This document shows, piece after piece, positions 1,850 through 18,616 of a stretch of 64,000 nucleotides of DNA. The position numbers and the translations under genes are program-made. Position 1 is the stretch's first letter; every line of letters starts with the position of its first letter. Source of the stretch: a virus; the IMG/VR virus record IMGVR_UViG_3300036715_002161, positions 64,001 through 128,000 of that record; one strand, written 5' to 3'. The notes below the pieces were generated by a model, which saw only the letters and a program-made list of their open reading frames with translations, had not been told where the DNA came from and searched no databases.

Positions 1850-3460
1850 ATGACACAAAAGAAAGTGAAGTTAACTACTTCGCAGCTGGGCAGGGCAATA
1901 TTGTCCTTTAAGGGGAAACCCTTTTCCCTGGACGGCTATAAACCATTTACTGAAATATATGACTTTGACCCACCTCTGATGACGGTCAAGTGTTCCAGAC
2001 AGGTTGGTAAGACTCTATCCATTGGGGCCATCAAAGCCCTTAAGTGTATATCAAGGCCTTATTTCACCTCTCTGTATATTGCCCCATTGTCAGTCCAGGC
2101 CTCACGGTTTTCAACTACTTACCTAGACCCTTTCCTGAATTCCCCTCTGGTCAAGAAATACTATAGGGATACCAGTTCGAAGAAAAATGTCTTTGAAAAG
2201 ACATTGAATAATGGTTCTATAATGTTCTTGTCTTATGCCGAGTCCGAGGTAGACGCCGACCGAGTTCGAGGGGTGGCCGGAGATGCCCTTTCCGTAGATG
2301 AAGTTCAAGACGTCCAAGCCGAAGCCTTGCCTATCCTATATGAATCTTTGTCGGCCTCAGACTATGCCCTTAAGAGGCACTATGGTACTCCTAAGTCAGA
2401 ACAGAATACCTTAGAGGTACTGTTCAAAAAGGGGTCGGGTAGTGAGTGGTGTGTTAAATGTAATCATTGTAATCACTGGAACATTCCCTGGGACCATGAC
2501 AATTGTGTAGCCATCTGTAGTGGACTAGTAGGACCTATTTGTATTAAATGCTCTAACCTATTAGACGTAACCTCCGGAGGATGGATCTCGGCCAGACCAG
2601 ACCAAAACAAAGTACATGTGTCTATGCATATACCAAGGTTTATGCTGGAGTCTAGGGCCAACCCTAAAAAGTGGGGGGAACTACAACATGCCATAACAGA
2701 GTATTCTACCAGCAAGCTAGACAATGAAGTCTTTGGTATTGCCAGTGGCAGTGCTGGCCGTATTCTTTCTCAGAAAGAGGCGATGGAGTGCTGTAACCCA
2801 GAAGTCTCTGAATTTGATACTTGCTGGGCGATGGACTCTCGTGGTATAGTTGCAATTGCAGTAGGGGTAGACTGGTCTTTGGTAGGTAGTAAAGTTAGCC
2901 ATACGACAATTACTGTTGCCGGGTTTGATAGTACCGGTAAGCTGTACGTAATGTATGCCAAAAGAATAGATGAAAAAGATGTACAGAAACAGGTCCGGGA
3001 AGTAATTGACATTTATCGTAGATTTAACGCCCAGATTATTTGTAGCGACCGTGGAGTAGGTGTTATGCAGGGGCAATTAATTTCTCAGATTATAGGTTCT
3101 GACAAAGCTTATATGATACAATTAGGGGCAGCCAAAGTTCCATTGACCCTGGACCGTGCTGGCGGTTATATGTTCGCCGACAGGACAATGGCTATGGACT
3201 CCGTTATATTTAAGGCCAAGTTAGGCCGTTCTAAGTTGGAGACTCCAAGCTGGAATCTGATGTCTTCACCTTTTTGGTCAGATTGGCTTAATTGTTATGA
3301 TGAAGAAACCAGGTCAGGAAGAAAAGTTTATAGAAAGAATGACGGAACGACCGACGACCTGTTAATGTCAACGGCCTTCGCCAATATTGGATTTCAGATA
3401 ATGCAGGGCGACTTCACTTATCTGGATCAGCAAGACCCACATCAACTAGGAGATTTTTAA
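1850..3460 (+). CDS. terL: terminase large subunit (gpA-like)
   Basis: Walker A SRQVGKT, Walker B LSVDEVQD, GTP coupling motif, CxxC..CxxC zinc ribbon, nuclease GVDW and DDLL motifs. Start moved from 1835 to 1850 because of the promoter motif. Confidence 0.9.
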   Translation: MTQKKVKLTTSQLGRAILSFKGKPFSLDGYKPFTEIYDFDPPLMTVKCSRQVGKTLSIGAIKALKCISRPYFTSLYIAPLSVQASRFSTTYLDPFLNSPLVKKYYRDTSSKKNVFEKTLNNGSIMFLSYAESEVDADRVRGVAGDALSVDEVQDVQAEALPILYESLSASDYALKRHYGTPKSEQNTLEVLFKKGSGSEWCVKCNHCNHWNIPWDHDNCVAICSGLVGPICIKCSNLLDVTSGGWISARPDQNKVHVSMHIPRFMLESRANPKKWGELQHAITEYSTSKLDNEVFGIASGSAGRILSQKEAMECCNPEVSEFDTCWAMDSRGIVAIAVGVDWSLVGSKVSHTTITVAGFDSTGKLYVMYAKRIDEKDVQKQVREVIDIYRRFNAQIICSDRGVGVMQGQLISQIIGSDKAYMIQLGAAKVPLTLDRAGGYMFADRTMAMDSVIFKAKLGRSKLETPSWNLMSSPFWSDWLNCYDEETRSGRKVYRKNDGTTDDLLMSTAFANIGFQIMQGDFTYLDQQDPHQLGDF

Positions 3461-3879
3461 TGAGTAAAGAAGTAAAAGAAGAAGTAAAAGAGAACACCAA
3501 GTACAAAGAAGAAGATCTATTGGCTATCTTTGATACCCTTATGTTTGAAGGTAAGTATACTGAAGATGTAATGATTAAGGGCAAGCTTAAGGTGACGTTT
3601 AGGTCAATGTCTGCCAAAGATGTATCAGAGACTTCTGCCCTTCTGGACTCCAAGAACTATATCTTATATGAAACCATGCAGCAACAAAGAGCGTTACTCA
3701 ACCTGAGCCGCTGCCTTGACTTTTATAATCAAAAAGACTTGTCCACAATGACTTCTGATAATAAAATGGCATTCATTGAAGGCCTCCCTGCTGCAATGGT
3801 GGCTGCCTTGTCAGACTCTCTTGGGGAGTTCTCTGTCAAAGTTATGAAAGCCTGCGAGGTAGGTGAGAAAAATTTTTAA
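3460..3879 (+). CDS. tail assembly chaperone (gpG-like)
   Basis: 139 aa, upstream of tape measure, ends in a slippery heptamer. Confidence 0.7.
   Translation: MSKEVKEEVKENTKYKEEDLLAIFDTLMFEGKYTEDVMIKGKLKVTFRSMSAKDVSETSALLDSKNYILYETMQQQRALLNLSRCLDFYNQKDLSTMTSDNKMAFIEGLPAAMVAALSDSLGEFSVKVMKACEVGEKNF
3870..3876 (+). other. -1 programmed ribosomal frameshift site A AAT TTT
   Basis: X XXY YYZ heptamer immediately before TAA; the -1 frame is open to 4241. Confidence 0.75.
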
Positions 3880-4241
3880 AACAGTCGTGGGCCATTAGCC
3901 GACTTAAATTATATACCTCTGGAATAAAACCTCCACCTCTTGGAAGCCCCCAAGATATAGTCCTTAGAAAGTTTGATCTTATACAGGAAGAGAAGCAGGT
4001 TATATTAAATAAGATAATGACTCAACACATTATTAGTCAAAGTAGGGGGGATTCTTTTGTCTCCTCTATTAAGAAGCTGTGGAGTCATTATGTTAGTTTG
4101 GCCTATGGTATAGAAGACAAGTCAGTAGATGAGGAAGTGGCTATGCGTCATGAATATGATTTCTTCAAACATCTACGTCCAGTAATGTCTAAGACCGCAG
4201 AAGGTATAACGGTAGTCAAAGGTCTGCTAGGGTTAAAATAA
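3876..4241 (+). CDS. frameshifted C-terminal extension of tail chaperone (gpGT-like)
   Basis: -1 frame LKQSWAISRLKLY... is continuous with the track ORF 4017..4241. Confidence 0.7.
   Translation, partial: LKQSWAISRLKLYTSGIKPPPLGSPQDIVLRKFDLIQEEKQVILNKIMTQHIISQSRGDSFVSSIKKLWSHYVSLAYGIEDKSVDEEVAMRHEYDFFKHLRPVMSKTAEGITVVKGLLGLK
4232..4240 (+). promoter_or_regulatory. late promoter motif GTTAAAATA
   Basis: 4 nt before ATG 4245. Confidence 0.6.
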
Positions 4242-4244
4242 AGT

Positions 4245-7136
4245 ATGGCTGACATCTTTAAAACCCAGGCAGATACTAGGTTTAACTCTTTTACTGATCC
4301 CCTTAACCCGGTCAATACAAACTCTGGGTCATGGGGTATTAATTCAGCCTATCTGACTCCGAGTTATACTGCCCAGTATAGACCCGGCTATCAAGGACCC
4401 TACGGAACCCAGTATGGTAACTCGGGTAATCCTGGGTTTTTCCATTCCTTAAATGCCACCTTAAATCCTTTTAGTGCTGCCCCTGGCCCTGGTGGAAACG
4501 TATACAATCAAACTTCTGGCTATTATAGCTCACTAGGACAAACACCGATGGCGGGTGCAGCCTCCTTGGCTCAGAACTATGTCTTACCTATGACGGCCAG
4601 CTACTATGCCTTCAAATACCTTAATCGTCCCAGTCATGCCATAGGTAGGGCGGCCCTGGGTGGATTTTCCAGAGGTGTTATGTCAGGTCTAGGGGCTAAT
4701 GCTGGTATGGCCGCCGGAGCTGGAGAAATGATGGGGGCAGTAGGTGGCTTCGCGGCAGAATTTGCGCTTCCCGGTATGGTGGCTCAGGCTGCCTTGGCCC
4801 CGGCAAATGCCATGATCTTTAACCCAATGGTAAACAACTTTCAGACCGCTGACATGTTAAGACGTAATACGGCGGGTATTACTTTTGGTGGTGGATATGG
4901 TAATGATGTAACTGGTGGTGGTTTGAGTCGTAGATCAGCCTCTAGGATGTCCACTCAGATGAGTCAAATAGGTGCCCGTGATCAAACCTTCAGTATGGAT
5001 GAAGTTACTGACATTGCCGATAATTCTATGAGGGCCGGGCTATACGATAACGTCAAGGCCAAGGACTTGGTCGGTAAGACAAAACAGATTGTAACCCAGA
5101 TTAAGACCATTATGCAGTTTGCCAATACCTCTGATTATAAAGAGGCTATTGAGCTTATGGCGACCATTCAAAGGTCAGGTGTAGGGGTAGGTACTGCCAT
5201 GAGCCAGTTTACTACCACAATGGGTGGGTATGCGGCCACTGCTGGTGTCTCTACTCAGAGAATGATGAATACCGTAGGTATGCAGGGTCAATATATGTTC
5301 GGGGCAAATGGATTAAATCCAGCCCTGGGGCAGTTGGCGGCAGGTAAGTCTTATGCCTCCTTTATGGCAGCTAACCGTCAGGGTTTAATTTCTCAAAGCT
5401 TGCTGGCCACAATGGGTGGAGCCGAAGGGGCAGCCCAATCCTCTATTACAGGCCAATTAAATGCCTATCAGAGTCCATATGCCAACATTATTGGGTATAA
5501 CGCCTTATATAATGGCGGAGCCGGGAAATCAGTCATAGACAACGTTACAAAATTCGGAGGGGCTGCTGCTCGTGACCCTATTGGAGTACGGGGTAAAATG
5601 CTTCTTCACCAAAATGATATTACTGGTTCCATGACCAAGGCTGGGCCTATGGGTGTGGAAAGGATGATCGAAGACTATGTTGATAATAATCACGGATTGT
5701 CCAGGGATAAAAATGGGAAAATTTCTCCAGAAGTAGCTATGGTGGCCTTGGTAGACGGTCTTGGTATGAGCCCAGAGAACGCTAAGGCCGTTATGATAGA
5801 TCGTATGAACCAGGAAGACCCGGAGGTTCTTAAGGCCCGGATGGCTGCCCTTACTAAGAATGGTGCTGACCAAACCATGTCTTATATGAAAAATCAGAAT
5901 ATTAACTATGGCCCACTTAATGGAGCTGTTCAAGGTATAAGCGGGGCTTGGAGAGGAGCTAAGGCGGCTGGAGCCAGGGGAGTAGGGCGAACTGTTGGAG
6001 CCCTGTCTGCAATTATTGGAGACGACACAGAAAAAGCTTTGTCGGGAGCTCAATACGGCGACCTAAAAGGTCAGGTGTATGACCCCAGTAGAAAAGTTGA
6101 AGGCAAGGTTAAAAGACTTAAAAATATAGAATCCTTTGATCGACTAGACCCAACGAATGAGATAAATAAGCTGGCTGATGCGGGGGATGAGGATGCTCAG
6201 ACTTATATAGACAATTCTGGCCCAGCTGGTAATAAAAGCCTACAGAAAGAAGCCTTTCGCAGAATGTCTACTATGGGAAAAATTTCTGCTGATGAAGAAT
6301 TCTATCATAACGCTGCCTCTATAAATATGGAGGGCGGTACTACAACGGCTACCCCAGCTGGCTCCAAGAATGACCTATTAACCTCTAGATTAGGCGAAAT
6401 CAGGAAGATAGGAAAAGAAGGTATGATGAGGGGTATGGCAGAAGACTTAATGCTAGGTACTCTACGCACTGACCTAAAGGGGGCTAAATCTGCCAAAGAT
6501 GCCCAAGATATTGTGGATAGGTTTAATACGGTTAGTGGTAGGACTGGTAAGAATAAATTGGATATAGCCACGGCTAGAAGCTTGGCCGACTCGGATGCTA
6601 AAAACTTCGTTAATCAGGGATTATCTGAGGCTGGTCTTAGAATGACTGAACTTGGGTTTGATCCTAAAAACCCATATGCTTTCTTTAAAAGCGAGGCCGA
6701 TCAGTTAGAAAGTGGTAAGGGTAATCTATGGGATTCCATAAAAGATAAGGATGCCCGGGCCAGAATTATGGGGCTCAAAGGTACAGCACGTAGAGATGCC
6801 TTGGAAAAGGAAGTTTTTAATGGTATTAAAATCTATGACAAAATGTCCACTTACGAAGGAGGAGACGCAGACGATGCTTCCAATCTGAATGAGCAACGTA
6901 TGCAGACGGCCAGAGATATGAACCAGGCCTTGACCGAATATAAGAGTAAGGCCATAGACTTCAGTACTTATAAGAGAGAAATTTCTGAAATCTCCTTTGC
7001 CGGATCAGTATCTAAATTTGATAAGGCAGTAAATAATTGGGTGAGTAAAACAGAGGGAGGTAAGCTTCCAGGATTTGATAAAATAAACTTCGGCAAGGGT
7101 AAAGACCCAGCCGTCAGAACTTTAAAGGAACCATAA
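4245..7136 (+). CDS. tail tape measure protein
   Basis: 963 aa, Ala/Gly/Met-rich helical composition; follows the frameshifted chaperone. Confidence 0.7.
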   Translation: MADIFKTQADTRFNSFTDPLNPVNTNSGSWGINSAYLTPSYTAQYRPGYQGPYGTQYGNSGNPGFFHSLNATLNPFSAAPGPGGNVYNQTSGYYSSLGQTPMAGAASLAQNYVLPMTASYYAFKYLNRPSHAIGRAALGGFSRGVMSGLGANAGMAAGAGEMMGAVGGFAAEFALPGMVAQAALAPANAMIFNPMVNNFQTADMLRRNTAGITFGGGYGNDVTGGGLSRRSASRMSTQMSQIGARDQTFSMDEVTDIADNSMRAGLYDNVKAKDLVGKTKQIVTQIKTIMQFANTSDYKEAIELMATIQRSGVGVGTAMSQFTTTMGGYAATAGVSTQRMMNTVGMQGQYMFGANGLNPALGQLAAGKSYASFMAANRQGLISQSLLATMGGAEGAAQSSITGQLNAYQSPYANIIGYNALYNGGAGKSVIDNVTKFGGAAARDPIGVRGKMLLHQNDITGSMTKAGPMGVERMIEDYVDNNHGLSRDKNGKISPEVAMVALVDGLGMSPENAKAVMIDRMNQEDPEVLKARMAALTKNGADQTMSYMKNQNINYGPLNGAVQGISGAWRGAKAAGARGVGRTVGALSAIIGDDTEKALSGAQYGDLKGQVYDPSRKVEGKVKRLKNIESFDRLDPTNEINKLADAGDEDAQTYIDNSGPAGNKSLQKEAFRRMSTMGKISADEEFYHNAASINMEGGTTTATPAGSKNDLLTSRLGEIRKIGKEGMMRGMAEDLMLGTLRTDLKGAKSAKDAQDIVDRFNTVSGRTGKNKLDIATARSLADSDAKNFVNQGLSEAGLRMTELGFDPKNPYAFFKSEADQLESGKGNLWDSIKDKDARARIMGLKGTARRDALEKEVFNGIKIYDKMSTYEGGDADDASNLNEQRMQTARDMNQALTEYKSKAIDFSTYKREISEISFAGSVSKFDKAVNNWVSKTEGGKLPGFDKINFGKGKDPAVRTLKEP

Positions 7137-7137
7137 A

Positions 7138-7347
7138 ATGGCCAAGGCAGTTATTAATACCAAACTTTTGGCATTGACCCCAGCCCAAGTTTACTTACAA
7201 CAGGTAGGTGCTACTTTTGAGGCCATTAGATATAGCAATACCGACTTGTCGTATATACCCGCTCAATTTGGTGGATTGACGGGCCAAAACCTGGTTTCTA
7301 ATAGTGGGGTAGTATTAGAAGTAATTTCCTTTGATATAGAATCATGA
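7138..7347 (+). CDS. hypothetical virion protein
   Basis: 69-aa ORF coupled to its neighbours. Confidence 0.5.
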   Translation: MAKAVINTKLLALTPAQVYLQQVGATFEAIRYSNTDLSYIPAQFGGLTGQNLVSNSGVVLEVISFDIES

Positions 7348-8741
7348 CATTTCCTTTTACAAGTAGTCCTGTAGTACCATCTAGTCTGACTAGTTTTCTT
7401 ACACCCGATTCTCCACTTCAGGCTAGTAAGGTACCGGTTGCCTCCACCAATCTGAATAATTTCTTGACTAGTCAACCATATAACGATAGTAGTCCAGACA
7501 GAGATGGCGGAAATACCAGACTAGGAATTGTCCTACCCAGGTCAGCAAGTAACCGTATGAGTAACGGAGTAGTCCAGGCTACGACTAAGGATTATAACTC
7601 CAGGGGAGTAGTTGCGGCCATGAGACTTAAGGTCAATCCTAATCTTAAAAATAGACCTACAAGCCAAGGTGGGCTGGATTATTCTTCTGATATAGATTCT
7701 CTTACAAAAGAAGGGCTTACTTTCCAGAACTTTTTATTGACCGACATTCAGGTTACATATAGTGAAAAAGTTCAAATTATGACTACTTTTGGTGATAACG
7801 AAGTAGCCTACTATTTCGGTAGACAGCCGGTAGTATATAATTTGTCAGGTGTACTGGTAGATGCCATAAACTTTGAATGGTTTACCAAATTCGTAGCCTT
7901 ATACCAAAATACCCTCAGAGGTAGTCAGCTGGCCAAGAACTATGAATTATTGGAAATATTATTACCTAATATAAAACTTGTTGGCAGTATAATGTCTTTG
8001 TCAACAAATCAGAATGCGGCCAGGGATACAGATATAGGGTTTGTCCTTCAATTTTTAGCCAAGGGTTTTGTCCCTCAGCCTATGCCTGCTGGGACTGGAG
8101 CTGTTGGAATCGGCAAACCAATGCTTACCTTTGACACGAATAAGGTTCCCAATCTGAGTAATCAAGTATCTGTTTTATTTGGGGCCAATATCGGATCCGC
8201 AAGTAATGTACTTAGTACTACTACTGGATTAGGCAGTATACTGTCTAAAAACCCCTTTTCATCTATTACTAACCCTTTGACATCAGCCGCATCTATAATT
8301 GAGTCATCCTTTTCTCCTGTTTATGGTATCCTATCTGATATAACCAAACTTATAAACACTGGTGGTGGGGATATTGCCAGTATTATTAACTCATTTAGCA
8401 GCCCAGTTAATGCCATACTTAAATCTATTAATAATATCTCCAAGGAAGCCTTCGCCCTTGGGACGGCCATAGATAACCAGATAAAACAAATTGCTGACAT
8501 AGGATTAAAGGGCCGTAATAGTATTACTCAGACATTAATAGGTGTTAAGAATGCAGTTGGATCCATTACTCGTATTCCACATACAGCATCTCAAGCCTTC
8601 GCCTCTTTAGTTACTGGCGGTAGGGTTTCTTCTAAGGCGGCCATATTAGGAGGCGGATTCCGCTCAAGTCATACTGCCGACAAAATACCACTATTACACT
8701 CAGGATCCACTTATAAACCTTCCTCTGGGGCCTCTCTATGA
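7344..8741 (+). CDS. putative tail tube initiator / baseplate protein
   Basis: 465 aa; position after TMP; beta-rich EKVQIMTTFGD..YYFGRQP segment. Confidence 0.45.
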   Translation: MTFPFTSSPVVPSSLTSFLTPDSPLQASKVPVASTNLNNFLTSQPYNDSSPDRDGGNTRLGIVLPRSASNRMSNGVVQATTKDYNSRGVVAAMRLKVNPNLKNRPTSQGGLDYSSDIDSLTKEGLTFQNFLLTDIQVTYSEKVQIMTTFGDNEVAYYFGRQPVVYNLSGVLVDAINFEWFTKFVALYQNTLRGSQLAKNYELLEILLPNIKLVGSIMSLSTNQNAARDTDIGFVLQFLAKGFVPQPMPAGTGAVGIGKPMLTFDTNKVPNLSNQVSVLFGANIGSASNVLSTTTGLGSILSKNPFSSITNPLTSAASIIESSFSPVYGILSDITKLINTGGGDIASIINSFSSPVNAILKSINNISKEAFALGTAIDNQIKQIADIGLKGRNSITQTLIGVKNAVGSITRIPHTASQAFASLVTGGRVSSKAAILGGGFRSSHTADKIPLLHSGSTYKPSSGASL

Positions 8742-9595
8742 GTCTAAGAGAATACTCTAATTTCCTAGTCTTTGAAGGAGTCCTGGAAAGTATAGGAAAT
8801 GTCTCTCCTATAATGTCTCAGCTAAGGGATATGATTCTATATCCACATCTTAAAATTGTAGAAACAGATTGTAATACTTTTATGGGTAGAGTATTACCTT
8901 TGACCCCAGACCTAACTGGAGAGATAGAAGTATCAACCGGTGTAGCCTTGACTAAAGCCAGGATAAACTACCTATACTCAAAAGGTATCTATACTACTCA
9001 GGTAAGATCTATCAATACTTGTACCTCTATAGATGGTATCTGTACCAAGTGTTTCTCTGGCACATTCCCGGAAAAGAGCACACCAGAAGTCGGGTCTATT
9101 GTCAGTATACCTCCTAGATACATATTATCTTTTGACATAGTTATCGGAAATGGTCATAGCAATACATATACTCTGAATTTTGCCCCTGAGGCCACAGATA
9201 CTACTTTGTTGTTTATTAATGGTATTTTATCGCCTTCTAACACATATGATATACAAGGTAATATTCTTACTACTTTAACCCCACTACCAATAAATGACAT
9301 AATAGCCGTCAAAAATTATGGTCTTAGTACCTCCGGACTATTGGGGTTTTTTGCCAGGAGTTATTCTGGGGCAGTTTTCGGAATACATGAGCTGCCTACT
9401 TATCCCTTACCTATTAGACAAGGTCTTTACGAAACAGTAGTAATACCAGATGCAGTATTGGATCAGGCTTTTACGGAACTAGAGAAATTTCCAATAACCT
9501 CTACCACCCTTGAGTATTATGGTACAATAAATTCTAACCTGGAAAAAGCCTTGTTCTTATTATACAACTATGCAATCTACTCATCAATTCAATAA
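8738..9595 (+). CDS. RNA polymerase beta' zinc-binding-domain fusion with a virion-type beta domain
   Basis: IVETDCNT..G and VRSINTCTSIDGICTKCFSG match RpoC VTEDDCGT..G and VRSVVSCDTDFGVCAHCYG; followed by a GNGHSNTYTL..LFINGI..YDIQGNILT tail-type module. Confidence 0.65.
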   Translation: MSLREYSNFLVFEGVLESIGNVSPIMSQLRDMILYPHLKIVETDCNTFMGRVLPLTPDLTGEIEVSTGVALTKARINYLYSKGIYTTQVRSINTCTSIDGICTKCFSGTFPEKSTPEVGSIVSIPPRYILSFDIVIGNGHSNTYTLNFAPEATDTTLLFINGILSPSNTYDIQGNILTTLTPLPINDIIAVKNYGLSTSGLLGFFARSYSGAVFGIHELPTYPLPIRQGLYETVVIPDAVLDQAFTELEKFPITSTTLEYYGTINSNLEKALFLLYNYAIYSSIQ

Positions 9596-11879
9596 TAACC
9601 AATCCTATACTGATGTAGTATTTCAAGAATTTGCTCTTTTTATTGAGGGAGTAGAAGTCCCATTTACCTCTATGTCAGTATCTTCTGGGCTGGGGACTTT
9701 ACCAACGGCAGTAATAACTGTACCACCAGCCCCGGCCTTAATGGATATAGCTGTTTTCTATCAACCTAAGGTACATATTTTTTATAGGGATACCATAGGA
9801 GGTATAGACGATGGGGCCAATGCCGGTGATCCCAATAGACAGCCGGGAACTTGGAGACTACTATTTAAAGGTATAATTGCCAGTAGTTCCTTTCAGAAAT
9901 CTATTAATTCTTCTACTGAGAATATCCAGTTTTCCTGTATACATAAGTATAGTGTTACCAGAGATATGCTATTGGACTATACCGCTCGATTTAATCTCCA
10001 AACAGATAGGTCCACCCAGGGGACTTCTCCCGGAGCGGCCAATAGTCAAGTGAGTATTTTGGCGGCATTAGAGAGTATAACTGATAATGATCCGGCCACA
10101 GAGGCCACTCTGACCACACCTACTAATTCAGTCAAAACTTCTACCCTACCTTTATTTTTACGGAATTTCAAAAATAGACTTATTGGTATTCCAGGGGTCA
10201 TGGTCAATTTCTGGCAACAAATAAAAAGGGATACTTTTAATAAAGACTTGCTTCCTTTTATGGATATATTTAATAAATTATATCTACCGCTGGTAGAATC
10301 AGGTCTACAGATTTTCCAAAGGACTACCGGTCATAGGTTTATAGAATCATTAATAGATGGTTCTAAGACTGACTATGATTGTGGGGCGGCCAATGGAGGG
10401 GTAAGGAAAATAATCACTCCTCACCCATATAGACTATTTATTGAGTCAGCTATTCAACAGGAAATGGCTATAAGAGTTATTAGTGAAACCATGCAGAATA
10501 CTGGGGAACTTACTGATATTTTCTCTTTGTTCAATGCGGTCTATGAATCTATCGACTACGATATGATTACTTTGGCCAGCCCAGCCGAGTCTGCTAATAT
10601 GCTAGATGGGGTCAGTACCTGGGCCGCCGATACTATTATAAAACCCAAACTACCTTTTTATTATTCTCCAACTTGTAATATTTTCTTACCAGGGATGTAT
10701 CTATCCTTAAATGTAAATAGTGATGAAAGCAATATTCCTAGTAGACTAGACTTTAGAAATGATGAGAGTATTGATGGTACTAATAGTGCCAAACTAAATA
10801 CTTACTTTAGGGCTCCGGCATCTGTTAGAGAAGCCATATCCAAAGGGTTTGATCCTCAGGGTAAAAATGACCTTTTGAGTACTACCGGCCAAGGTAAGGG
10901 TAAATTCAGTAAATATGAGCAAGGCAGGGGTGTCAAGGTAGAAGTGGGTGTTTTACCTAGATGGCTATCTATGTTTAGTGCCGCTCAGTTTTCTGATCAA
11001 AGTAGTAGTAAAGAAAGCTGGCCAGACCCTACAAATAAAAACAACTATGATTCTATTGATAGACTGGCAAATGCCTGGACTGCCAGGTATGGCAAAGAAA
11101 AGGATAATCTAAATCCATGGGTTAAAAACTCTGATGTCCAACCCTACCATAGAATGCTATTTTCTGCCGTTGACTACTATTATACTCAGTATGTTGCCAG
11201 AAGTAGGGCTGGTGTAATGGATTGTCCGTTTAACCCATATGTAATACCTGGGTATCCCTTGGACATTATCTCAGGAAACCCAACCTCGCCAAGTTTCCAT
11301 GGCTTATGTACTAGCATAACCCATACAATAACCTCTACCTCTTGCCAGACTACTGTGTCTTTTGCCGCAGCCCTGACTTATTCTCAACTGGTAAACTACT
11401 ATATACCTTTTGTTCACCCCTGGTTAGAGGTCAGCCTTGGCTTGGCCGATAATCCTACTTTGGTGGCCAACACTGAAGGCAAGATAAAGGCCAAGCAGTT
11501 CTACAAAGGGGTATTATCCAATTACGTAACTGCCATAGGACCAGAGGACTTGCTGAACTTTTCTACCGGTTTACCCAACCCTTTGACAAGAGGAGGGGAC
11601 AACTTGGTCGGACCAGGAGGATCAGCCACTTCAGTAGAGGGACATAATGGCGGAGAAATTAACCCCAATCTGACCTATCAAGGTAATCTAAGTTTAGCAT
11701 ACAGAGAAATTGAGTCCAAGGACAGTATAATGGCCAGAGAAAATATAAAGTTTATTGATATGCATCCCTCCGTATACAATAGTACCGTCTTCAAGTATAT
11801 TGATAAAATTATTACTGACCCTAGTCAAAGACTAGATCTTAACCAAAGTCCATTCCTGGACTATGCTGACCCCAGTTAA
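9570..11879 (+). CDS. baseplate hub protein (gp27/VgrG-like)
   Basis: 769 aa; N-terminal LFIEGVEVPF and C-terminal PFNPYVIPGYP...ITHTIT pattern; position in tail cluster. Confidence 0.55.
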   Translation: MQSTHQFNNNQSYTDVVFQEFALFIEGVEVPFTSMSVSSGLGTLPTAVITVPPAPALMDIAVFYQPKVHIFYRDTIGGIDDGANAGDPNRQPGTWRLLFKGIIASSSFQKSINSSTENIQFSCIHKYSVTRDMLLDYTARFNLQTDRSTQGTSPGAANSQVSILAALESITDNDPATEATLTTPTNSVKTSTLPLFLRNFKNRLIGIPGVMVNFWQQIKRDTFNKDLLPFMDIFNKLYLPLVESGLQIFQRTTGHRFIESLIDGSKTDYDCGAANGGVRKIITPHPYRLFIESAIQQEMAIRVISETMQNTGELTDIFSLFNAVYESIDYDMITLASPAESANMLDGVSTWAADTIIKPKLPFYYSPTCNIFLPGMYLSLNVNSDESNIPSRLDFRNDESIDGTNSAKLNTYFRAPASVREAISKGFDPQGKNDLLSTTGQGKGKFSKYEQGRGVKVEVGVLPRWLSMFSAAQFSDQSSSKESWPDPTNKNNYDSIDRLANAWTARYGKEKDNLNPWVKNSDVQPYHRMLFSAVDYYYTQYVARSRAGVMDCPFNPYVIPGYPLDIISGNPTSPSFHGLCTSITHTITSTSCQTTVSFAAALTYSQLVNYYIPFVHPWLEVSLGLADNPTLVANTEGKIKAKQFYKGVLSNYVTAIGPEDLLNFSTGLPNPLTRGGDNLVGPGGSATSVEGHNGGEINPNLTYQGNLSLAYREIESKDSIMARENIKFIDMHPSVYNSTVFKYIDKIITDPSQRLDLNQSPFLDYADPS

Positions 11880-11888: not shown

Positions 11889-12098
11889 ATGATTTCTACC
11901 TCAAGTCTGGCCGTCGGAGTTCAAACCGGTGCTGAATTAATTCCTACCAATGCTGCACCGGTTCTAAGTTCGACAAGTGACGCCTTGGCCTGTTTTAGTC
12001 AACAACAGTTCAGTGCCAAACTACAAACTTACTTGGTAAGCTATGTAATGGCAGTGGGTGGTTACTATTCATTATACTCAGGGTTTAATCCAGAATGA
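11889..12098 (+). CDS. hypothetical protein
   Basis: 69-aa ORF behind the late motif, ATGA-coupled to the sigma gene. Confidence 0.55.
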   Translation: MISTSSLAVGVQTGAELIPTNAAPVLSSTSDALACFSQQQFSAKLQTYLVSYVMAVGGYYSLYSGFNPE

Positions 12099-12790
12099 CA
12101 GAAGATGTAAAAAATCTAGACCAAGAGCTTTACTTTAAATGGGTTGAGGATAAATCCAAGCCTAACCTCAGCAAACTTGTAAAGCAGCTTTATCCAATTA
12201 TATACTCGGAAGTCCGTAGACAGTCTGGTACTTTACCAGAAGCTGCTCTTTCTGGGGAGGCCAAGAAATGGGCCATTAAAGCCATACAGACGTATGACCC
12301 TAGCAAGGGGGCCTTATTGTCTACTCATACTGTAAACTACCTGGCCAAGACTCGTAGACTTAACTATAAGTATCAAAATGCAGTTAGGCTTCCAGAAAAT
12401 CTACATAGACAATTCTCTGAGTTTAGAAATGTAGTTAGTCATTTGACTGATAATCTAAATCGTGATCCGACAGATGATGAGATTGCCGATGAAATTGGCT
12501 GGAGTAGGCCACAGGTGGTTAAGTTTAAAGGTGGTCTGTATGATGACCTGCTGGAATCAGGCTCATTAAAGCCTACTGAGGCAACTCAGTTTAATTCTAA
12601 TAAGTTCTTGTTGGACCATATACTTTCTCAATTAGATAGCCAAGAAAAATTTATACTGAATAATAGAGGTACTATGAATTCAACTCAATTGGCAGAAGCC
12701 TTGGGGGTAAATGTAAGTCGCCTCAATTATCTTGTCATGAAGTTGACCAACAAAGTAGCCGCCACTAAAAAAGAAATAGGCATGTACTAG
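12095..12790 (+). CDS. sigma-70 family sigma factor (group 3 / FliA-like)
   Basis: Region 2 IKAIQTYDPSKGALLSTH, VRLPE, region 3 LNRDPTDDEIADEIGW, region 4 HTH QLAEALGVNVSRL. Confidence 0.8.
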   Translation: MTEDVKNLDQELYFKWVEDKSKPNLSKLVKQLYPIIYSEVRRQSGTLPEAALSGEAKKWAIKAIQTYDPSKGALLSTHTVNYLAKTRRLNYKYQNAVRLPENLHRQFSEFRNVVSHLTDNLNRDPTDDEIADEIGWSRPQVVKFKGGLYDDLLESGSLKPTEATQFNSNKFLLDHILSQLDSQEKFILNNRGTMNSTQLAEALGVNVSRLNYLVMKLTNKVAATKKEIGMY

Positions 12791-13671: not shown

Positions 13672-15669
13672 ATGACTATTACTACTGACCTATTCAGCTA
13701 TTTACCAGGCCTTCAAGTATCTCCCAACGAAATCTTAGAGAGTGAGTTATTTTGCCAGCAAGTGTTACAGGCTCAGTTCCCCGACACTGATTGGAGGCAA
13801 GGTACGGGTGTTACCGATATGGTAATTAGGCCTAGTGCAACTCTACTGGCCTTAATTAATAAGGCACTAATTTTCTATTTCTCTCAAAATACCTTGGCCA
13901 GTGTAACCAATGACACTTCTACCAGTATCGTAGATAGTCTGTTGTCCAATTGGTTTATTACTAGAAATCAAGGATCTGCCTCAGTAATTAATGCCAGACT
14001 ATATTTTGCTGTATCTAAAAATGTCATCTTAAATACGAGTACATATTTTTCCCCAGATAACGTCTTACGTTTTTACCCAAGTGGTTCTCTGGCATTCAAT
14101 GCAGATCAGATGAGTCTTGATATACCCTCTAATTCTTGGTACATAGATGTAGACCTGGTGGCAGAAACTCCAGGTAGTGGCTATGACATAAGCTCAGGTA
14201 GTCTATTATATTTCACCACATTCGACACTTATTTCTTACATGCCGAGATCAACTATTTGTCAGCGACATCGATTTCCTCCGAGAGTAACCTAGATTTTGT
14301 AAAAAGAACTTCGGACAGTATCTCTACTCGTAATCTTATAAATAACCCCAGTATCAGCTCTAACCTACTGGAGAATTTTTCCCTTATAACTGAAGTAGCC
14401 TCAAAAGGTCTAGGGGACCCAGAAATGATTAGGGATCTTAGTCTAGTAACACCCCCATTTCCAAACGTACCAATATGGGTACATACGGGAGGTATGGTGG
14501 ACGTATATTGCAGAGTACCTTTGACTACTAATACGTTACAATTTGTAACTGATGTTAATGGCAAAGTCTATATACCCGGCCCTAACTACAAAGGCATTCG
14601 CTCAGGCGTAACCGGAGGTATAGACGTTGATACAATGTTTGTAACTCATTGCCAAGCCTTACCCAATACTTTTCAAATTACTGTAGATTCTACTAATGGA
14701 CTCGTCCTATTTGGGAATATAAGTATTGAAGGGGCGGCTCCTGGAAATAATACCTTAAATACCCAGATAACGGCCATATCCGGGTCTCTTATTACTGTGG
14801 CCGACAAGATTTGGAATACTCTTTCGGACGCCGTGGTAGGCCCTGCCTATGTTGTTAGCAATCCTAATTTTGGTCAAGCTTCTGGCGTGTCCTTGAACAG
14901 TGGCTCTAATACTACTAATACTTTTGCCTTTTCCCCTTTTGCCGAAGTTTCTTTTGCTGGATTAGTCATTAGTGGTACTACTGGGTTAGCCACGGCCACC
15001 AGACCAGATCATGGTATCACTCCCGGTAGGTATGTGACCATATCAGGAGCTACTCCTACAGGATATAATGGAACTTTTAAAGTTCTGTCATCTACAAAAG
15101 ATACTTTTACCTATGAGATAGCTCCTAGTGTGACCGGGGCGGCTACTGGAATAATTAGCCTGTTCTATGTAGTTCCCAATAGTGATATTGGTTTTAGCAG
15201 TAGGCAACAATTACTATACGACTTTGGTACTGGCCAGGCCAATAAGACAGTTAGTCTTTCATTACATTCTTTTCAAGGATTGGACGGTATTCAGAACTAC
15301 CTATCCAGTAAGAGTAATAAGGTCTTGGCTGCTGATTTATTGGCTCGTGGATTTAATCTATGTATGCTGGATATTGAAATAGTAGGATATACTGGGGTAG
15401 CACCTAGTTCTGCCTTGTCTCTATCCCTGACACAAAACTATCTGTCCTCTTTAGTTCCAGGCCAGGTTTTTGTTATGTCTGACCTGCTATCTACTTTGTA
15501 CTCTGGCGGTATTACTACTATAAAGACTCCAATATCAATTACTTATAATATATATACCCGTGACCTGGTTCCTCCCATATCTGGTACTATTACGGACACC
15601 TTAAACACTAGAGATTCAACCAATATATTTATGGTTAATAGCATTAGTACTAGCTCAGAAAATGTCTAA
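13672..15669 (+). CDS. baseplate wedge protein (J/gp6-like)
   Basis: DWRQGTGVTDMVIRP, VDLVAETPGSGYDI and ESNLDFVKR are baseplate-J-like; carries an inserted HGITPGRYVTISGATPTGYNGTF beta module. Confidence 0.7.
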   Translation: MTITTDLFSYLPGLQVSPNEILESELFCQQVLQAQFPDTDWRQGTGVTDMVIRPSATLLALINKALIFYFSQNTLASVTNDTSTSIVDSLLSNWFITRNQGSASVINARLYFAVSKNVILNTSTYFSPDNVLRFYPSGSLAFNADQMSLDIPSNSWYIDVDLVAETPGSGYDISSGSLLYFTTFDTYFLHAEINYLSATSISSESNLDFVKRTSDSISTRNLINNPSISSNLLENFSLITEVASKGLGDPEMIRDLSLVTPPFPNVPIWVHTGGMVDVYCRVPLTTNTLQFVTDVNGKVYIPGPNYKGIRSGVTGGIDVDTMFVTHCQALPNTFQITVDSTNGLVLFGNISIEGAAPGNNTLNTQITAISGSLITVADKIWNTLSDAVVGPAYVVSNPNFGQASGVSLNSGSNTTNTFAFSPFAEVSFAGLVISGTTGLATATRPDHGITPGRYVTISGATPTGYNGTFKVLSSTKDTFTYEIAPSVTGAATGIISLFYVVPNSDIGFSSRQQLLYDFGTGQANKTVSLSLHSFQGLDGIQNYLSSKSNKVLAADLLARGFNLCMLDIEIVGYTGVAPSSALSLSLTQNYLSSLVPGQVFVMSDLLSTLYSGGITTIKTPISITYNIYTRDLVPPISGTITDTLNTRDSTNIFMVNSISTSSENV

Positions 15670-18616
15670 TAATATTTCGCAGTTTTCTTCCAAAGGTCTT
15701 GATCTTGGTATAGACTCCAAGGTCTTGACCTTTATGTATGGGTTATCCGACTTTTGGAGATTCATGTTTGAAGACTCTGAAAAAATAAATCTTCTATTAG
15801 AGTCTGGGGCTACTCAGGCATCAGAAATTTATAATCATTTTCTACAACTGACCTCTACCCTTAGTCTGGAGGGTATTTCAGCTCTGACAAATTCCCAGAT
15901 AAAGCTGGTTTTAATAAATTCTACTGACCTGGTACCCGGCACGCCTTCTACTTATAAAATAAATGGTATATCTATTTCTTCTGCTAGGTTTATAGCAGAC
16001 AAACCTTTTCTGCCAACGGCCACCTTAGAAGAAGGAGCTCATTACTTTATAGATGCCGGCTCTAATAATCTGTTACTATATAAACCAATAGAATCAATAG
16101 GTTTTCCTTCTAGAGTATTACCGGACGGTACTACTCAGTATTCTATTTGGATGGTGGATGCCAGGATAGATGAACAACTAATATCTAAGTATTATGGCAA
16201 TCTGATTTCCATAAGCCCAGAAACGTCTACAGATAACTTTAGTAACTTTGTATATGGACTATATTACCTATATACCAATGGTCCGGTTCTAAATACAATT
16301 AAAAAGGCCCTTAATCTAGTCCTAGGCATCCCGTTGGCTAGAGGCGTAGAGACTATACTTGACATTAGGCTATACCCCAATTCGCAACAGTATTTAGTAA
16401 CCACCGATTCCAACTCCTACTTATTACCCTATGGATTATCTCCAACCGGACAGGTAGGGGATGTTCTACAACCATTTCAGGAATTAACAAGTTGGGTAGT
16501 TATTAAGGATTACGTATCCGACGGAGTGTGGTGGCTTAATCTAGCTATACCTCCAGAACTGATACCATACCCCCCCAATGGTAAGGATAATAGGGCTACT
16601 GCTGGTAGTCATGCAGAGTATGTCATGGCCAATTACTTGTACAAAAATACTTTTTTGGTCAATGTAAATACTACAAGTTTCAAAGACTTGGAACTTTTTA
16701 CAAAACTAACAGACGTTATTAGCAGAGTTCGGCCAACTTATACAAGCCCTATTTACATTTGGTCGGTTCCGGTCCCAGATGAAAAAATAGGTATATCAGA
16801 TGCTAATCTAACCCTGGAGGTAGACAGCGTCCAAGTAGAATACGTATGCCCTAATATAGGGGTTTTTACAAGAGACTCCACTACTCCTATTTCTAGAAGA
16901 GGCGGGGCTTTTACCAGATTTTCTGGCCCCTCTTCTATGGACCGTCAGGTTGGAACTAGCCCAATAGACAATGGTACAGGCACCATAGTAAATGGGACTA
17001 CGGTTACTGGCTTTCAAGGCAGATTAAGACAATTTAGAAGTGCGACCAAAAACGAAGAAGGCTGGTTAAAAGCAGTAGTAGTCTATCCTACTGACAACTT
17101 CGTCCCCAACAATACTACACTATCTTTCTGTAGGGGTATAGATACCACTATTTCATCTTGGGGTATACCCGTCTATACAAACCCAGCCTATGCGGGGTTT
17201 AGGTCTGTATATTTACATACTACTAGTGTTGACTCTTTAAGAGCCAATGGCATAGAATTTACAGCCGTTTCAAATGACGTTACAGTACAGGTTACTGATA
17301 GTACGATAGGTAACGGCGATGGTGCTACTTCTAGCTTCAGGATAACTACCGGAGCTCAGACCTTGGTTGGAAATACCGACGTATTCAAAACTAACTGGCA
17401 GGGTAGGCAGTTACAGTATTTAAATCCCAGAACTAACTTATTGACAGGCTCTGAAAGTATATCCAATGGATCCAATGGATGGTATGGTAATGATAGTCCG
17501 GTATACACTACGGATGGTACCATAGGACCAGATGGTGTAGGAGTAGCCCAGTTATTAATTGCAGGTGCTCAAAATTCCGGGTATGGTATTGGGAGCTTCC
17601 AATTAGGCATATTTGTACTTGGTCTGCAATATACTATGTCTTTATTTTTTAAAGTCCCATCTAGCGGTAATTGTAATATAATATTTGGTAGTGATATAGA
17701 GCTTTGTGCAGTAAATACCACTACTTTAAAAGCTTCTTCCACAAAGGGAACTACTACTTTGACCAGTGTTGGTAATGGATGGTATAGGGCAAGTATTACC
17801 TTCACAGCTACAACCCCTAACCCTGTTATATACTCGTCCAATACGGGACGAGTATACATATGGGGTGCTCAAATAGAACGGTCCCCGGTACTCACTTCTT
17901 ATATCAAAACAACCACAGCCCAAGTTACTAGAACGGACTATTCATTAGTAGATGGACAAGTGATAATGAATAACCCTATACCTGAGAGTGGATCTATCAT
18001 TAGCTGGTCTGGGGCCTATAGTGAAAGTAAACAAACATCTAATGGGACTGGAGGATGGCATACTCTGGCTTCTGGATCTAGGAATACAATGGGCATAAAT
18101 ACTGCTCCAATAAATGATGGTACCGGATACTCTGTTGCAAACTTCTTAATCCAAAACTTTAGCTCCTTATTTATAAGGGATACAGGGGCTAATCTACCGT
18201 GGTATTATCCAAAAAACTCGTATACCTCCATACCATTGTCCGTTTCAGACGTTATTTCTGGTGACTTCTTAATGTTTTTTGAGCATGGTGACGACACAGG
18301 TATTAGCGTATATTGGGTAACATCTAATAACAACTTCGTAGGAAGGCCCTATATAAGCACTAACTCCTCTGATGATTTGTCAATAACCATAAGTGGTAAC
18401 ATTTCTAGAGGTATGGGGAATATCGGTAGTCCATATTTTCTGACTCGTGGATCTCAGCAAGTAGTGATAGGCGGGGTAAGGGCTACTAATACCCTGAGTA
18501 TAGATGCTGGTACTACAGACCTAGGAGCCTTATACTCCAATTACTCAGATTCTTTAAACCTTATTCAAAATATGGATAGATCGGGTAAATCCCTAGTGGT
18601 CAAGGGATACTTCTAG
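15662..18616 (+). CDS. large baseplate wedge protein with carbohydrate-binding-like insert
   Basis: 984 aa after the J-like gene; insert RTNLL..SE...GNGWYRASITF...YIWGAQIE..TSYIKTT is typical of phage CBM-like spike domains. Confidence 0.6.
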   Translation: MSNNISQFSSKGLDLGIDSKVLTFMYGLSDFWRFMFEDSEKINLLLESGATQASEIYNHFLQLTSTLSLEGISALTNSQIKLVLINSTDLVPGTPSTYKINGISISSARFIADKPFLPTATLEEGAHYFIDAGSNNLLLYKPIESIGFPSRVLPDGTTQYSIWMVDARIDEQLISKYYGNLISISPETSTDNFSNFVYGLYYLYTNGPVLNTIKKALNLVLGIPLARGVETILDIRLYPNSQQYLVTTDSNSYLLPYGLSPTGQVGDVLQPFQELTSWVVIKDYVSDGVWWLNLAIPPELIPYPPNGKDNRATAGSHAEYVMANYLYKNTFLVNVNTTSFKDLELFTKLTDVISRVRPTYTSPIYIWSVPVPDEKIGISDANLTLEVDSVQVEYVCPNIGVFTRDSTTPISRRGGAFTRFSGPSSMDRQVGTSPIDNGTGTIVNGTTVTGFQGRLRQFRSATKNEEGWLKAVVVYPTDNFVPNNTTLSFCRGIDTTISSWGIPVYTNPAYAGFRSVYLHTTSVDSLRANGIEFTAVSNDVTVQVTDSTIGNGDGATSSFRITTGAQTLVGNTDVFKTNWQGRQLQYLNPRTNLLTGSESISNGSNGWYGNDSPVYTTDGTIGPDGVGVAQLLIAGAQNSGYGIGSFQLGIFVLGLQYTMSLFFKVPSSGNCNIIFGSDIELCAVNTTTLKASSTKGTTTLTSVGNGWYRASITFTATTPNPVIYSSNTGRVYIWGAQIERSPVLTSYIKTTTAQVTRTDYSLVDGQVIMNNPIPESGSIISWSGAYSESKQTSNGTGGWHTLASGSRNTMGINTAPINDGTGYSVANFLIQNFSSLFIRDTGANLPWYYPKNSYTSIPLSVSDVISGDFLMFFEHGDDTGISVYWVTSNNNFVGRPYISTNSSDDLSITISGNISRGMGNIGSPYFLTRGSQQVVIGGVRATNTLSIDAGTTDLGALYSNYSDSLNLIQNMDRSGKSLVVKGYF

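Follow-up and report, generated by a model that had tools for sequence, protein, structure and literature searches.

What is a piece of RNA polymerase (RNAP) doing among the tail genes of a phage? The question is raised by an open reading frame (ORF) of 285 codons plus stop, open throughout, in a 64,000-nucleotide stretch of viral DNA (hereafter the window) which comprises bases 64,001 to 128,000 of the 138,036-bp virus record IMGVR_UViG_3300036715_002161 (42% G+C; estimated 78% complete). An initial annotation, made from the sequence alone, had recognized in this ORF the second zinc site of the RNAP beta' subunit joined to a tail-type domain, and had proposed either that a polymerase fragment was exapted as a structural domain or that the product docks to or mimics RNAP. 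The evidence below demonstrates that the zinc module is a homolog of beta' and that the gene lies inside a conserved tail/baseplate gene block. Of the explanations considered, exaptation is the best supported, by the homology and by synteny in the tail block: the product is probably a zinc-stabilized, outward-facing scaffold of the baseplate or tail tip, and a non-catalytic virion protein.

The resemblance of the zinc module to beta' is more than a chance match. When the single sequence was compared with Protein Data Bank (PDB) sequences by phmmer, 25 of the 26 matches at E<=10 were RNAP beta' chains aligned at the same place, the best of which was Mycobacterium smegmatis beta' residues 924-996 (E 9.6e-5). 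The NCBIfam model rpoC_TIGR matched at E 2e-5 over model positions 818-883 of 1147, and the score against the NCBIfam equivalog TIGR02386 was 22.6 bits, below the cut-off of 963.5. PHROG 25354 matched at E 9e-4 and also recognized the beta'-N and beta'-C pieces that the phage itself encodes (1.5e-42 and 2.7e-36, respectively). Exhaustive HMMER searches recovered relatives in 361 cluster representatives at E<=1e-3 (clusters at 50% identity), among which 139 scored at <=1e-10 and 82 at <=1e-30. A family profile was assembled from the protein and 108 relatives (109 sequences) selected for the Cys pattern and for a length of 195-345 residues. This profile produced 83 PDB matches at E<=1; all 60 that were listed are beta', with a best value of 3.5e-11, and the alignments were always placed at profile positions ~40-127. 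In hhalign comparisons the family matched the beta'-C piece of the same phage at E 6.6e-9, and the short forms of the family, which are 31% identical to five phage beta'-C pieces over 88 columns, matched these at E 5.6e-14. BLASTP also aligned the 285-residue protein with the phage's own beta'-C piece over 118 residues (28% identity, E 1e-5).

The four Cys residues of the second beta' zinc site which the initial annotation had listed are all present, as C45, C95, C102 and C105, and stand in this context: C45 lies in ETDCNTFMGR and is followed by QVRSINTCTSIDGICTKCF, the second stretch reading QVRSINTC(95)TSIDGIC(102)TKC(105)F. In Escherichia coli beta' the corresponding residues are C814, C888, C895 and C898. 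Non-Cys positions that are common to the protein and beta' include D44, T47, G50, R90 and G100. To avoid circularity, Cys conservation was mapped in 152 relatives (P0001-P0155 minus P0004-6) and not only in the Cys-selected set. The module is not covered in 22 of these, which are insert-domain-only proteins or C-terminal fragments, and three are N-terminally truncated and keep all three Cys residues that they cover. The four residues occur in 125 of the 127 relatives that cover the module in full, in 123 directly and in two that reach Cys3 and Cys4 only after an insertion of 150-190 residues; Cys4 is replaced by Asp in two of the 127. Such conservation speaks for selection on the zinc site, where the protein presumably binds zinc. 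Insertions of 100-190 residues inside the zinc module itself were observed in P0100, P0119 and P0121, located between Cys2 and Cys3 in P0100 and P0121 and within the SBHM loop in P0119; all four Cys residues proved to be retained when P0100 and P0121 were checked.

The predicted fold leads to the same assignment. An AlphaFold2 (AF2) model based on the 109-sequence alignment had a predicted local distance difference test (pLDDT) score of 96.2 and a predicted template modeling (pTM) score of 0.90; it replaced a model made with four close sequences only, which was unusable (pLDDT 41.5). Comparison of the model with RpoC structures by Foldseek, which the initial annotation had proposed as a check, bore out the relationship: the 34 PDB matches at E<=1e-3 comprised 33 beta' chains and CBA120 TSP4. 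By VIA-align, residues 37-126 were superimposed on M. smegmatis beta' 882-998 with Z 8.1 and a root-mean-square deviation (rmsd) of 3.2 A over 89 residues at 29% identity; for E. coli beta' 806-919, Z was 7.5-8.0. Values of Z near 8 may be common, and the identification is founded on Z, the 29% identity and the profile E-values together. In a wide search independent of Foldseek, only beta' chains covered the whole zinc module (Z>=7), with hybrid motifs of the MoeA/gephyrin type matching ~40-50 of its residues. Thus, the module is a true relative of beta' and not a generic zinc finger, as the profile value of 3.5e-11 and the fold match at Z 8.1 attest.

The catalytic parts of beta' are not present. 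Neither the double-psi beta-barrel with NADFDGD (Pfam RNA_pol_Rpb1_2) nor any other Rpb1 domain was detected in the protein at E<=1, and the bridge helix and trigger loop (Pfam RNA_pol_Rpb1_5, PF04998) gave no match. Forced extension of the hhalign alignment past the zinc module into the trigger loop carried no confidence. The earlier observation that trigger-loop sequence is missing after the zinc module was therefore correct: no such motif is found, and the profile alignments stop near residue 123-127.

The beta-rich module that had been described after the zinc module does exist, as a beta-sandwich at residues 128-197, but it is not a fusion partner that replaces the trigger loop. It is instead a lineage-specific insertion, as relatives of 206-240 residues have no beta-sandwich, and in them the conserved C-terminal helical domain, marked by the motifs YLAxTYSGSLxG and LE[KR]AL, follows the zinc module without a break. 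These short forms include gp7 of Salmonella phage Arash (226 residues) and D181_0008 of a Vibrio phage (221 residues). Since the beta-sandwich is missing from the short relatives, its presence in the 285-residue protein is attributed to insertion at a hot spot. The closest fold match of the insert was the N-terminal adaptor region of CBA120 TSP4, residues 185-252 (PDB 7rej; Z 9.8, rmsd 2.1 A over 67 residues by VIA-align), and the insert also resembles many neck, tail and fiber domains and F-ENA fibers (F-ENA Z 8.0). Matches in BFVD were dominated by a 65-residue insert domain of tail fibers and tailspikes. The Pfam family DUF4183 (PF13799) aligned with the insert at E 0.0012 and 19 bits, which is under the gathering cut-off of 25.1. 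The ESM Atlas yielded no usable match by features and, by structure, only look-alikes of the insert domain.

Longer relatives carry other domains. Laminin_G_3, a concanavalin A (ConA)-like lectin domain, was matched in five of the 10 longer relatives scanned with Pfam, at or above the cut-off of 27.6 bits in P0035 (61.6), P0097 (38.2) and P0093 (27.7) and under it in P0088 (23.9) and P0109 (17.7); the remaining five had no Pfam match. Four of the five have the lectin domain after the zinc module and ahead of the C-terminal domain, and in P0035 it forms a C-terminal extension. The protein thus has three parts: the zinc module together with the N-terminal helices, an insert that varies, and a C-terminal helical domain that is conserved. 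As the scaffold accommodates immunoglobulin (Ig)-type and lectin domains, inserts that can be several hundred residues long, it is presumably surface-exposed. In beta' the trigger loop and its lineage-specific inserts occupy the corresponding topological position, and the two may be parallel.

The C-terminal helical domain gave no confident fold or family match. A beta' derivation was entertained for this domain because a few VIA alignments extend as far as model residues 222-231, opposite beta' ~1131-1160, and its SYSGxxxG motif looks by eye like KHTGSG, with which the phage trigger helix ends. A beta' origin is unsupported and was dropped, as hhalign gave no support beyond residue ~123.

Other parts of beta and beta' are encoded by the same phage, which the initial annotation had suggested looking for. 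The beta subunit (record coordinates G000:C1:3-3263; at least 1086 residues, running off the contig start) matches RNA_pol_Rpb2_6 at E 9.7e-56. It is directly followed by a 378-residue beta'-N piece (record 3265-4401; Rpb1_2, PF00623, E 4.7e-18), after which lies an HNH/homing endonuclease gene (record 4398-5339; phrog_3339, 1.2e-40). Genes on the reverse strand then occupy ~8 kb before a 610-residue beta'-C piece (P0004; G000:C1:13689-15521; Rpb1_5, E 2.1e-12), 9 kb beyond beta'-N. The beta'-C piece possesses its own four-Cys site, VKDCGT...LRSSLTCEAKQGLCQMCYG, and then IIAAQSISEVLTQ, the trigger loop with AAQSISE. Because beta'-C has both a complete zinc module and a trigger loop, the 285-residue protein is an extra paralogous copy and not a missing subunit piece. 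A separate beta'-C frame of ~611-647 residues and a beta gene were found in four of five related virus records and in all three of those that are >=90% complete; the record in which both are lacking is 63% complete.

Several features bear on where the copy came from. The spacing between Cys1 and Cys2 is 50 residues in the protein versus 52 in the phage's beta'-C, and the modules are colinear, whereas the bacterial beta' alignments shown (Clostridium thermocellum and M. smegmatis) need an insertion of 24-27 residues relative to the family. Similarity to phage-type beta' begins at profile positions 27-36, in the LSPTVFHE region and with P36 included; the shown alignments with bacterial beta' begin later, at position 40. 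The family hidden Markov model (HMM) scored 41-52.5 bits on five phage beta' pieces versus at most 45.8 on bacterial beta'. The colinear module, the similarity that extends further upstream, and the HMM scores favor phage beta' as the source. These comparisons are suggestive, without amounting to proof, that the zinc module was duplicated from the beta' of the phage lineage itself and not acquired from a bacterial donor.

The gene is embedded in a conserved block (Table 1). Its ATG overlaps the stop codon of the upstream 465-residue gene (ATGA), and its 3' end shares 26 nucleotides with the 769-residue gene. The order is terminase large subunit, a 139-residue protein, a 963-residue Gly/Ala-rich protein, a 69-residue protein, the 465-residue protein, the zinc-module protein, the 769-residue protein, a 69-residue protein, a sigma factor, a 125-residue protein, a gp25-like protein, and proteins of 665 and 984 residues. 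This order, the sigma gene included, is identical as far as each locus extends in 21 of 21 related loci (19 from IMG/VR, several of which are near-duplicates, plus Arash and Vibrio phage D181).

Table 1. Features of the zinc-module gene and its surroundings (window coordinates)
Feature	Position	Strand	Basis
ORF of the beta'-zinc-module tail-cluster protein family	8738..9595	+	285 residues plus stop, frame open
N-terminal helices, residues 1-36	8738..8845	+	R4 and P36 nearly invariant in family alignment; AF2 model
RNAP beta' second-zinc-site/SBHM homolog, residues 37-126	8846..9115	+	Sequence matches and fold; Cys codons 8870-8872 (C45), 9020-9022 (C95), 9041-9043 (C102), 9050-9052 (C105)
Inserted beta-sandwich (DUF4183-like, tail/neck Ig-type), residues 128-197	9119..9328	+	Fold, BFVD matches; missing from short relatives
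Conserved C-terminal helical domain, residues 198-285	9329..9592	+	SYSG..G and LEKAL motifs; family alignment, AF2 model
Gly/Ala-rich 963-residue protein, tape-measure position (label from position/composition only)	4245..7136	+	Syntenic where locus reaches
465-residue upstream neighbor, start/stop overlap with the zinc-module gene	7344..8741	+	ORF list, synteny
769-residue downstream neighbor, hub position (label inferred from position)	9570..11879	+	Synteny
Sigma-70 family gene	12095..12790	+	Pfam Sigma70_r3 1.5e-5, NCBIfam SigBFG 7.1e-11, phrog_351 2.7e-7
gp25-like sheath-initiator candidate, 165 residues	13166..13663	+	Weak, consistent matches
GTTAAAATA motif, putative late promoter element	4232..4240	+	4 nt before ATG of first gene of the block
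GTTAAAATA copies	1837, 4232, 11875, 13659, 18617, 19452, 25661	+	Motif count

Among the neighbors, the 465-residue protein had no significant Pfam, PHROG or PDB match, either alone or as a profile, and the 769-residue protein had no PDB sequence match by either route. A phage lysozyme domain (8.7e-26) in Arash gp8, the homolog of the 769-residue protein, was the sole Pfam match among 11 members of that family; gp8 is annotated as 'cell wall hydrolase, structural protein'. The gp25-like gene matched phrog_43, a baseplate wedge subunit (E 0.0038), and its four PDB matches at E<=1 were all gp25/GPW proteins (E 0.15-0.7); in its family, Sheath_initiator was detected in two of nine members (best 0.0045) and GPW_gp25 in two of nine. 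Downstream tail genes matched phrog_5939 'tail protein' (1.8e-14) and phrog_8469 'tail fiber protein' (1.2e-15). Prediction of a complex between the zinc-module protein and residues 1-700 of its 769-residue neighbor returned scores of 0.03 and 0.00, which are evidence neither for nor against contact.

Three further proteins encoded in the window were characterized in passing. The 984-residue protein (15662-18616), which is the source of the phrog_5939 match, also contains a 'head spike fiber' domain of the gene transfer agent (GTA) type (NF048003, 5.3e-27). The profile of the 665-residue family (13672-15669) matched the endosialidase PDB 4hiz at E 4.5e-6, with End_beta_barrel (5.8e-09) and E1_FCCH each found in three of 10 members; no Baseplate_J signal was detected in the 665-residue protein, for which the label 'gp6-like' is positional only. 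A family A DNA polymerase is encoded at 42753-45551 on the minus strand (PF00476, 3.1e-59) and has an N-terminal match to the uracil-DNA-glycosylase superfamily (PF03167, 1.2e-05, residues 111-202).

The presence of a sigma gene 2.5 kb downstream, as had been noted initially, was confirmed. It is preceded by a 69-residue ORF, and the pair spans 11889-12790 between the hub-position and gp25-like genes. The motif GTTAAAATA occurs seven times in the window against 1.49 copies expected, a count that none of 100 shuffles reached. The genome contains 11 copies, all on the plus strand, of which seven have an ATG 4-5 nucleotides downstream. The pattern suggests that GTTAAAATA is a late promoter giving near-leaderless mRNAs, and, judging from the copy at 1837, the terminase gene may begin at 1850 and not at 1835. 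As a copy at 11875 precedes the 69-residue ORF, the sigma gene begins a putative transcription unit separate from that of the zinc-module gene.

Within 50,697 phage records, the family was found only in Arash and in Vibrio phages D181, D148 and D69; a fifth match, in an unannotated fragment (23% coverage, E 8e-3), may be a beta'. Searches for further family loci with P0120, P0106 and the beta'-C alignment as queries found none. Its members are restricted to a clade in which RNAP and sigma genes are present too (four of five related records, and three of three that are >=90% complete).

Arash, which its published abstract describes as a myovirus, provides particle data. According to the published report on this phage, LC-MS analysis of particles detected gp7, listed as a 'structural protein', by seven unique peptides and 202 spectra that covered 77% of it (PMC10585845). 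Gp4, the homolog of the 963-residue protein, contributed 1952 spectra, and the sigma factor gp10 was covered at 100% (PMC10585845). The preparation yielded 116 proteins, among them RNAP, ligases and ribonucleotide reductases; RNAP beta was the most abundant of all, and the authors allow for carry-over of highly expressed enzymes (PMC10585845). Division of the published spectra by protein length, a crude normalization, gave 0.60 spectra per residue for gp6 (homolog of the 465-residue neighbor), 0.89 for gp7, 0.67 for gp8, 1.5 for gp12 (the gp25-like homolog) and 2.0 for gp10. The values are compatible with a low-copy tail component, without being proof of one.

In the preferred reading, the protein would be a scaffold of the baseplate or tail tip in a clade of Arash-like phages of ~140-190 kb with beta, split beta' and sigma genes of their own. 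The N-terminal helices, the four-Cys zinc module and the C-terminal helical domain make up the core of the protein. The module is a paralogous copy of the part of beta' that lies between bridge helix and trigger loop, and it most likely arose by duplication from the beta' of the phage lineage. The zinc site may have been kept because it stabilizes the small beta-rich fold. An insertion-tolerant loop, at the topological position of the beta' trigger loop, separates the zinc module from the C-terminal domain; it carries a tail-type beta-sandwich in the present phage and either nothing or ConA-like lectin domains in relatives. Since the domains displayed at the loop vary, the protein is most likely an outward-facing scaffold anchored in the virion of the present phage by presumed partners at the baseplate, where it could present adhesion or adaptor domains.

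Certain observations weigh against this proposal. The core matches no solved or predicted baseplate protein by Foldseek, VIA-align, BFVD or the wide search. The baseplate identity of the neighbors rests on weak matches, and 'hub' and 'tape-measure' are positional labels. Detection of Arash gp7 is weak proof of a structural role because the 116 proteins of the preparation include enzymes. Confinement of the family to a clade that encodes RNAP and sigma keeps a tie with transcription in play.

One alternative is an RNAP-linked virion factor, in which the beta'-derived module docks to the phage RNAP or sigma or mimics a beta' surface, for example by holding a packaged polymerase close to the tail so that it is co-ejected. 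In favor of this, the module does derive from beta', members of the family are confined to phages with beta, beta' and sigma genes of their own, each of the 21 loci has the sigma gene embedded 2.5 kb downstream, and the three polymerase proteins are abundant in Arash particles (3516, 1210 and 467 spectra for beta, beta' and sigma, respectively; PMC10585845). Yet beta' shares the zinc module only, as no confident counterpart exists there for the N-terminal helices or the C-terminal domain, and the lectin and Ig-type inserts of relatives point to the cell surface and not to the polymerase. In beta' the zinc module mostly makes intramolecular contacts, and given these there is no obvious partner to mimic. 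Moreover, co-occurrence with RNAP may reflect simple clade inheritance, and the sigma gene has its own promoter-like motif. The docking or mimicry that had been proposed is not supported, and the nearby sigma gene, which the initial annotation had cited in its favor, lends it weak support as it is syntenic clade-wide (21 of 21) and has its own GTTAAAATA. An RNAP-linked factor is, overall, unlikely. A virion-borne link between the tail and a sigma-dependent RNAP, which holds or guides polymerase or sigma packaged to be delivered alongside the DNA, appears quite improbable; if it exists, the place of the sigma gene in the baseplate block would be functional.

Just as unlikely as an RNAP-linked factor is that the protein is not a stable virion part but an assembly factor, a zinc protein that helps to build the hub or tail tip and whose detection in Arash is carry-over. 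T4 gp51, a catalytic assembly protein, is the model for such a role. The reading frame overlaps those of the two tail-tip genes on either side, so that translational coupling is likely, no structural homolog was found in solved baseplates by VIA-align or the wide search, and the 116 proteins reported from the Arash preparation show that it was not clean. Nevertheless, the spectra per residue of gp7 in those data are similar to those of its structural neighbors, and an internal chaperone would hardly be expected to display lectin and Ig-type domains at a hot spot. Finally, that the module is an unrelated zinc ribbon, a four-Cys finger of generic type which resembles beta' by chance or convergence, is very improbable and excluded in practice: although four-Cys sites are common and the single-sequence E of 9.6e-5 is modest, the profile placed all 60 listed matches on beta' at the same position (3.5e-11), 29-31% identity extends across ~88 residues with non-Cys positions included, and beta' was the sole whole-module match at Z>=7 in the wide fold search.

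Compared with the second zinc site and SBHM of bacterial beta' (M. smegmatis 882-998, E. coli ~806-919), the protein preferred here as a tail scaffold has the same Cys order and the same Cys2-Cys3-Cys4 spacing, shares the flanking motifs DCxT..G, [VI]RS..TC and G[IV]C..C, and matches in fold (Z 8.1, 29% identity). Unlike bacterial beta', it is a stand-alone protein of 285 residues that lacks the double-psi barrel, bridge helix and trigger loop, and unlike the two bacterial sequences shown it does not have the 24-27-residue stretch, and has unrelated flanking helices and a tail-type insert. In the beta'-C of the phage and of related records the module is equally minimal in length, with upstream likeness through the conserved Pro, but the phage's beta'-C piece goes on through the trigger loop (AAQSISE...) and the remainder of Pfam RNA_pol_Rpb1_5, which the 285-residue protein does not. 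Siphophage 'evolved' distal tail proteins display inserted carbohydrate-binding modules. The present protein resembles these and the N-terminal adaptor domains of CBA120 TSP4 in having a conserved anchor with a hot spot that takes Ig-like or lectin domains; its scaffold fold, a beta'-derived zinc module with a helical domain, is unrelated to theirs, and its binding role is predicted. The split beta/beta' pieces of the phiKZ- and AR9-type virion RNAP are likewise phage-encoded, virion-associated RNAP fragments (PMC4666361, PMC5449584, PMC7598289 and PMC7824862). Those fragments are reported to form an active polymerase together, whereas the present protein is a non-catalytic extra module without which the phage's polymerase is complete. 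No published description of such a beta'-module baseplate protein was found in a limited literature search, and the SBHM passages of a phage paper that treats this motif do not mention one (PMC7824862).

If the protein is a tail scaffold, it represents a clear case in which a piece of a core information-processing enzyme was copied and reused as a virion part. Such reuse is unusual because large RNAP subunits rarely donate stand-alone domains. What is known of transcription would be unchanged unless the RNAP-docking alternative were true. A widespread unannotated family, with 361 representatives and members in four cultured phages, gains a name and a confident predicted fold, and the clade of polymerase-encoding phages that carries it is poorly studied. 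In these phages the protein is likely to be a zinc-dependent tail component whose variable display site may matter for host recognition.

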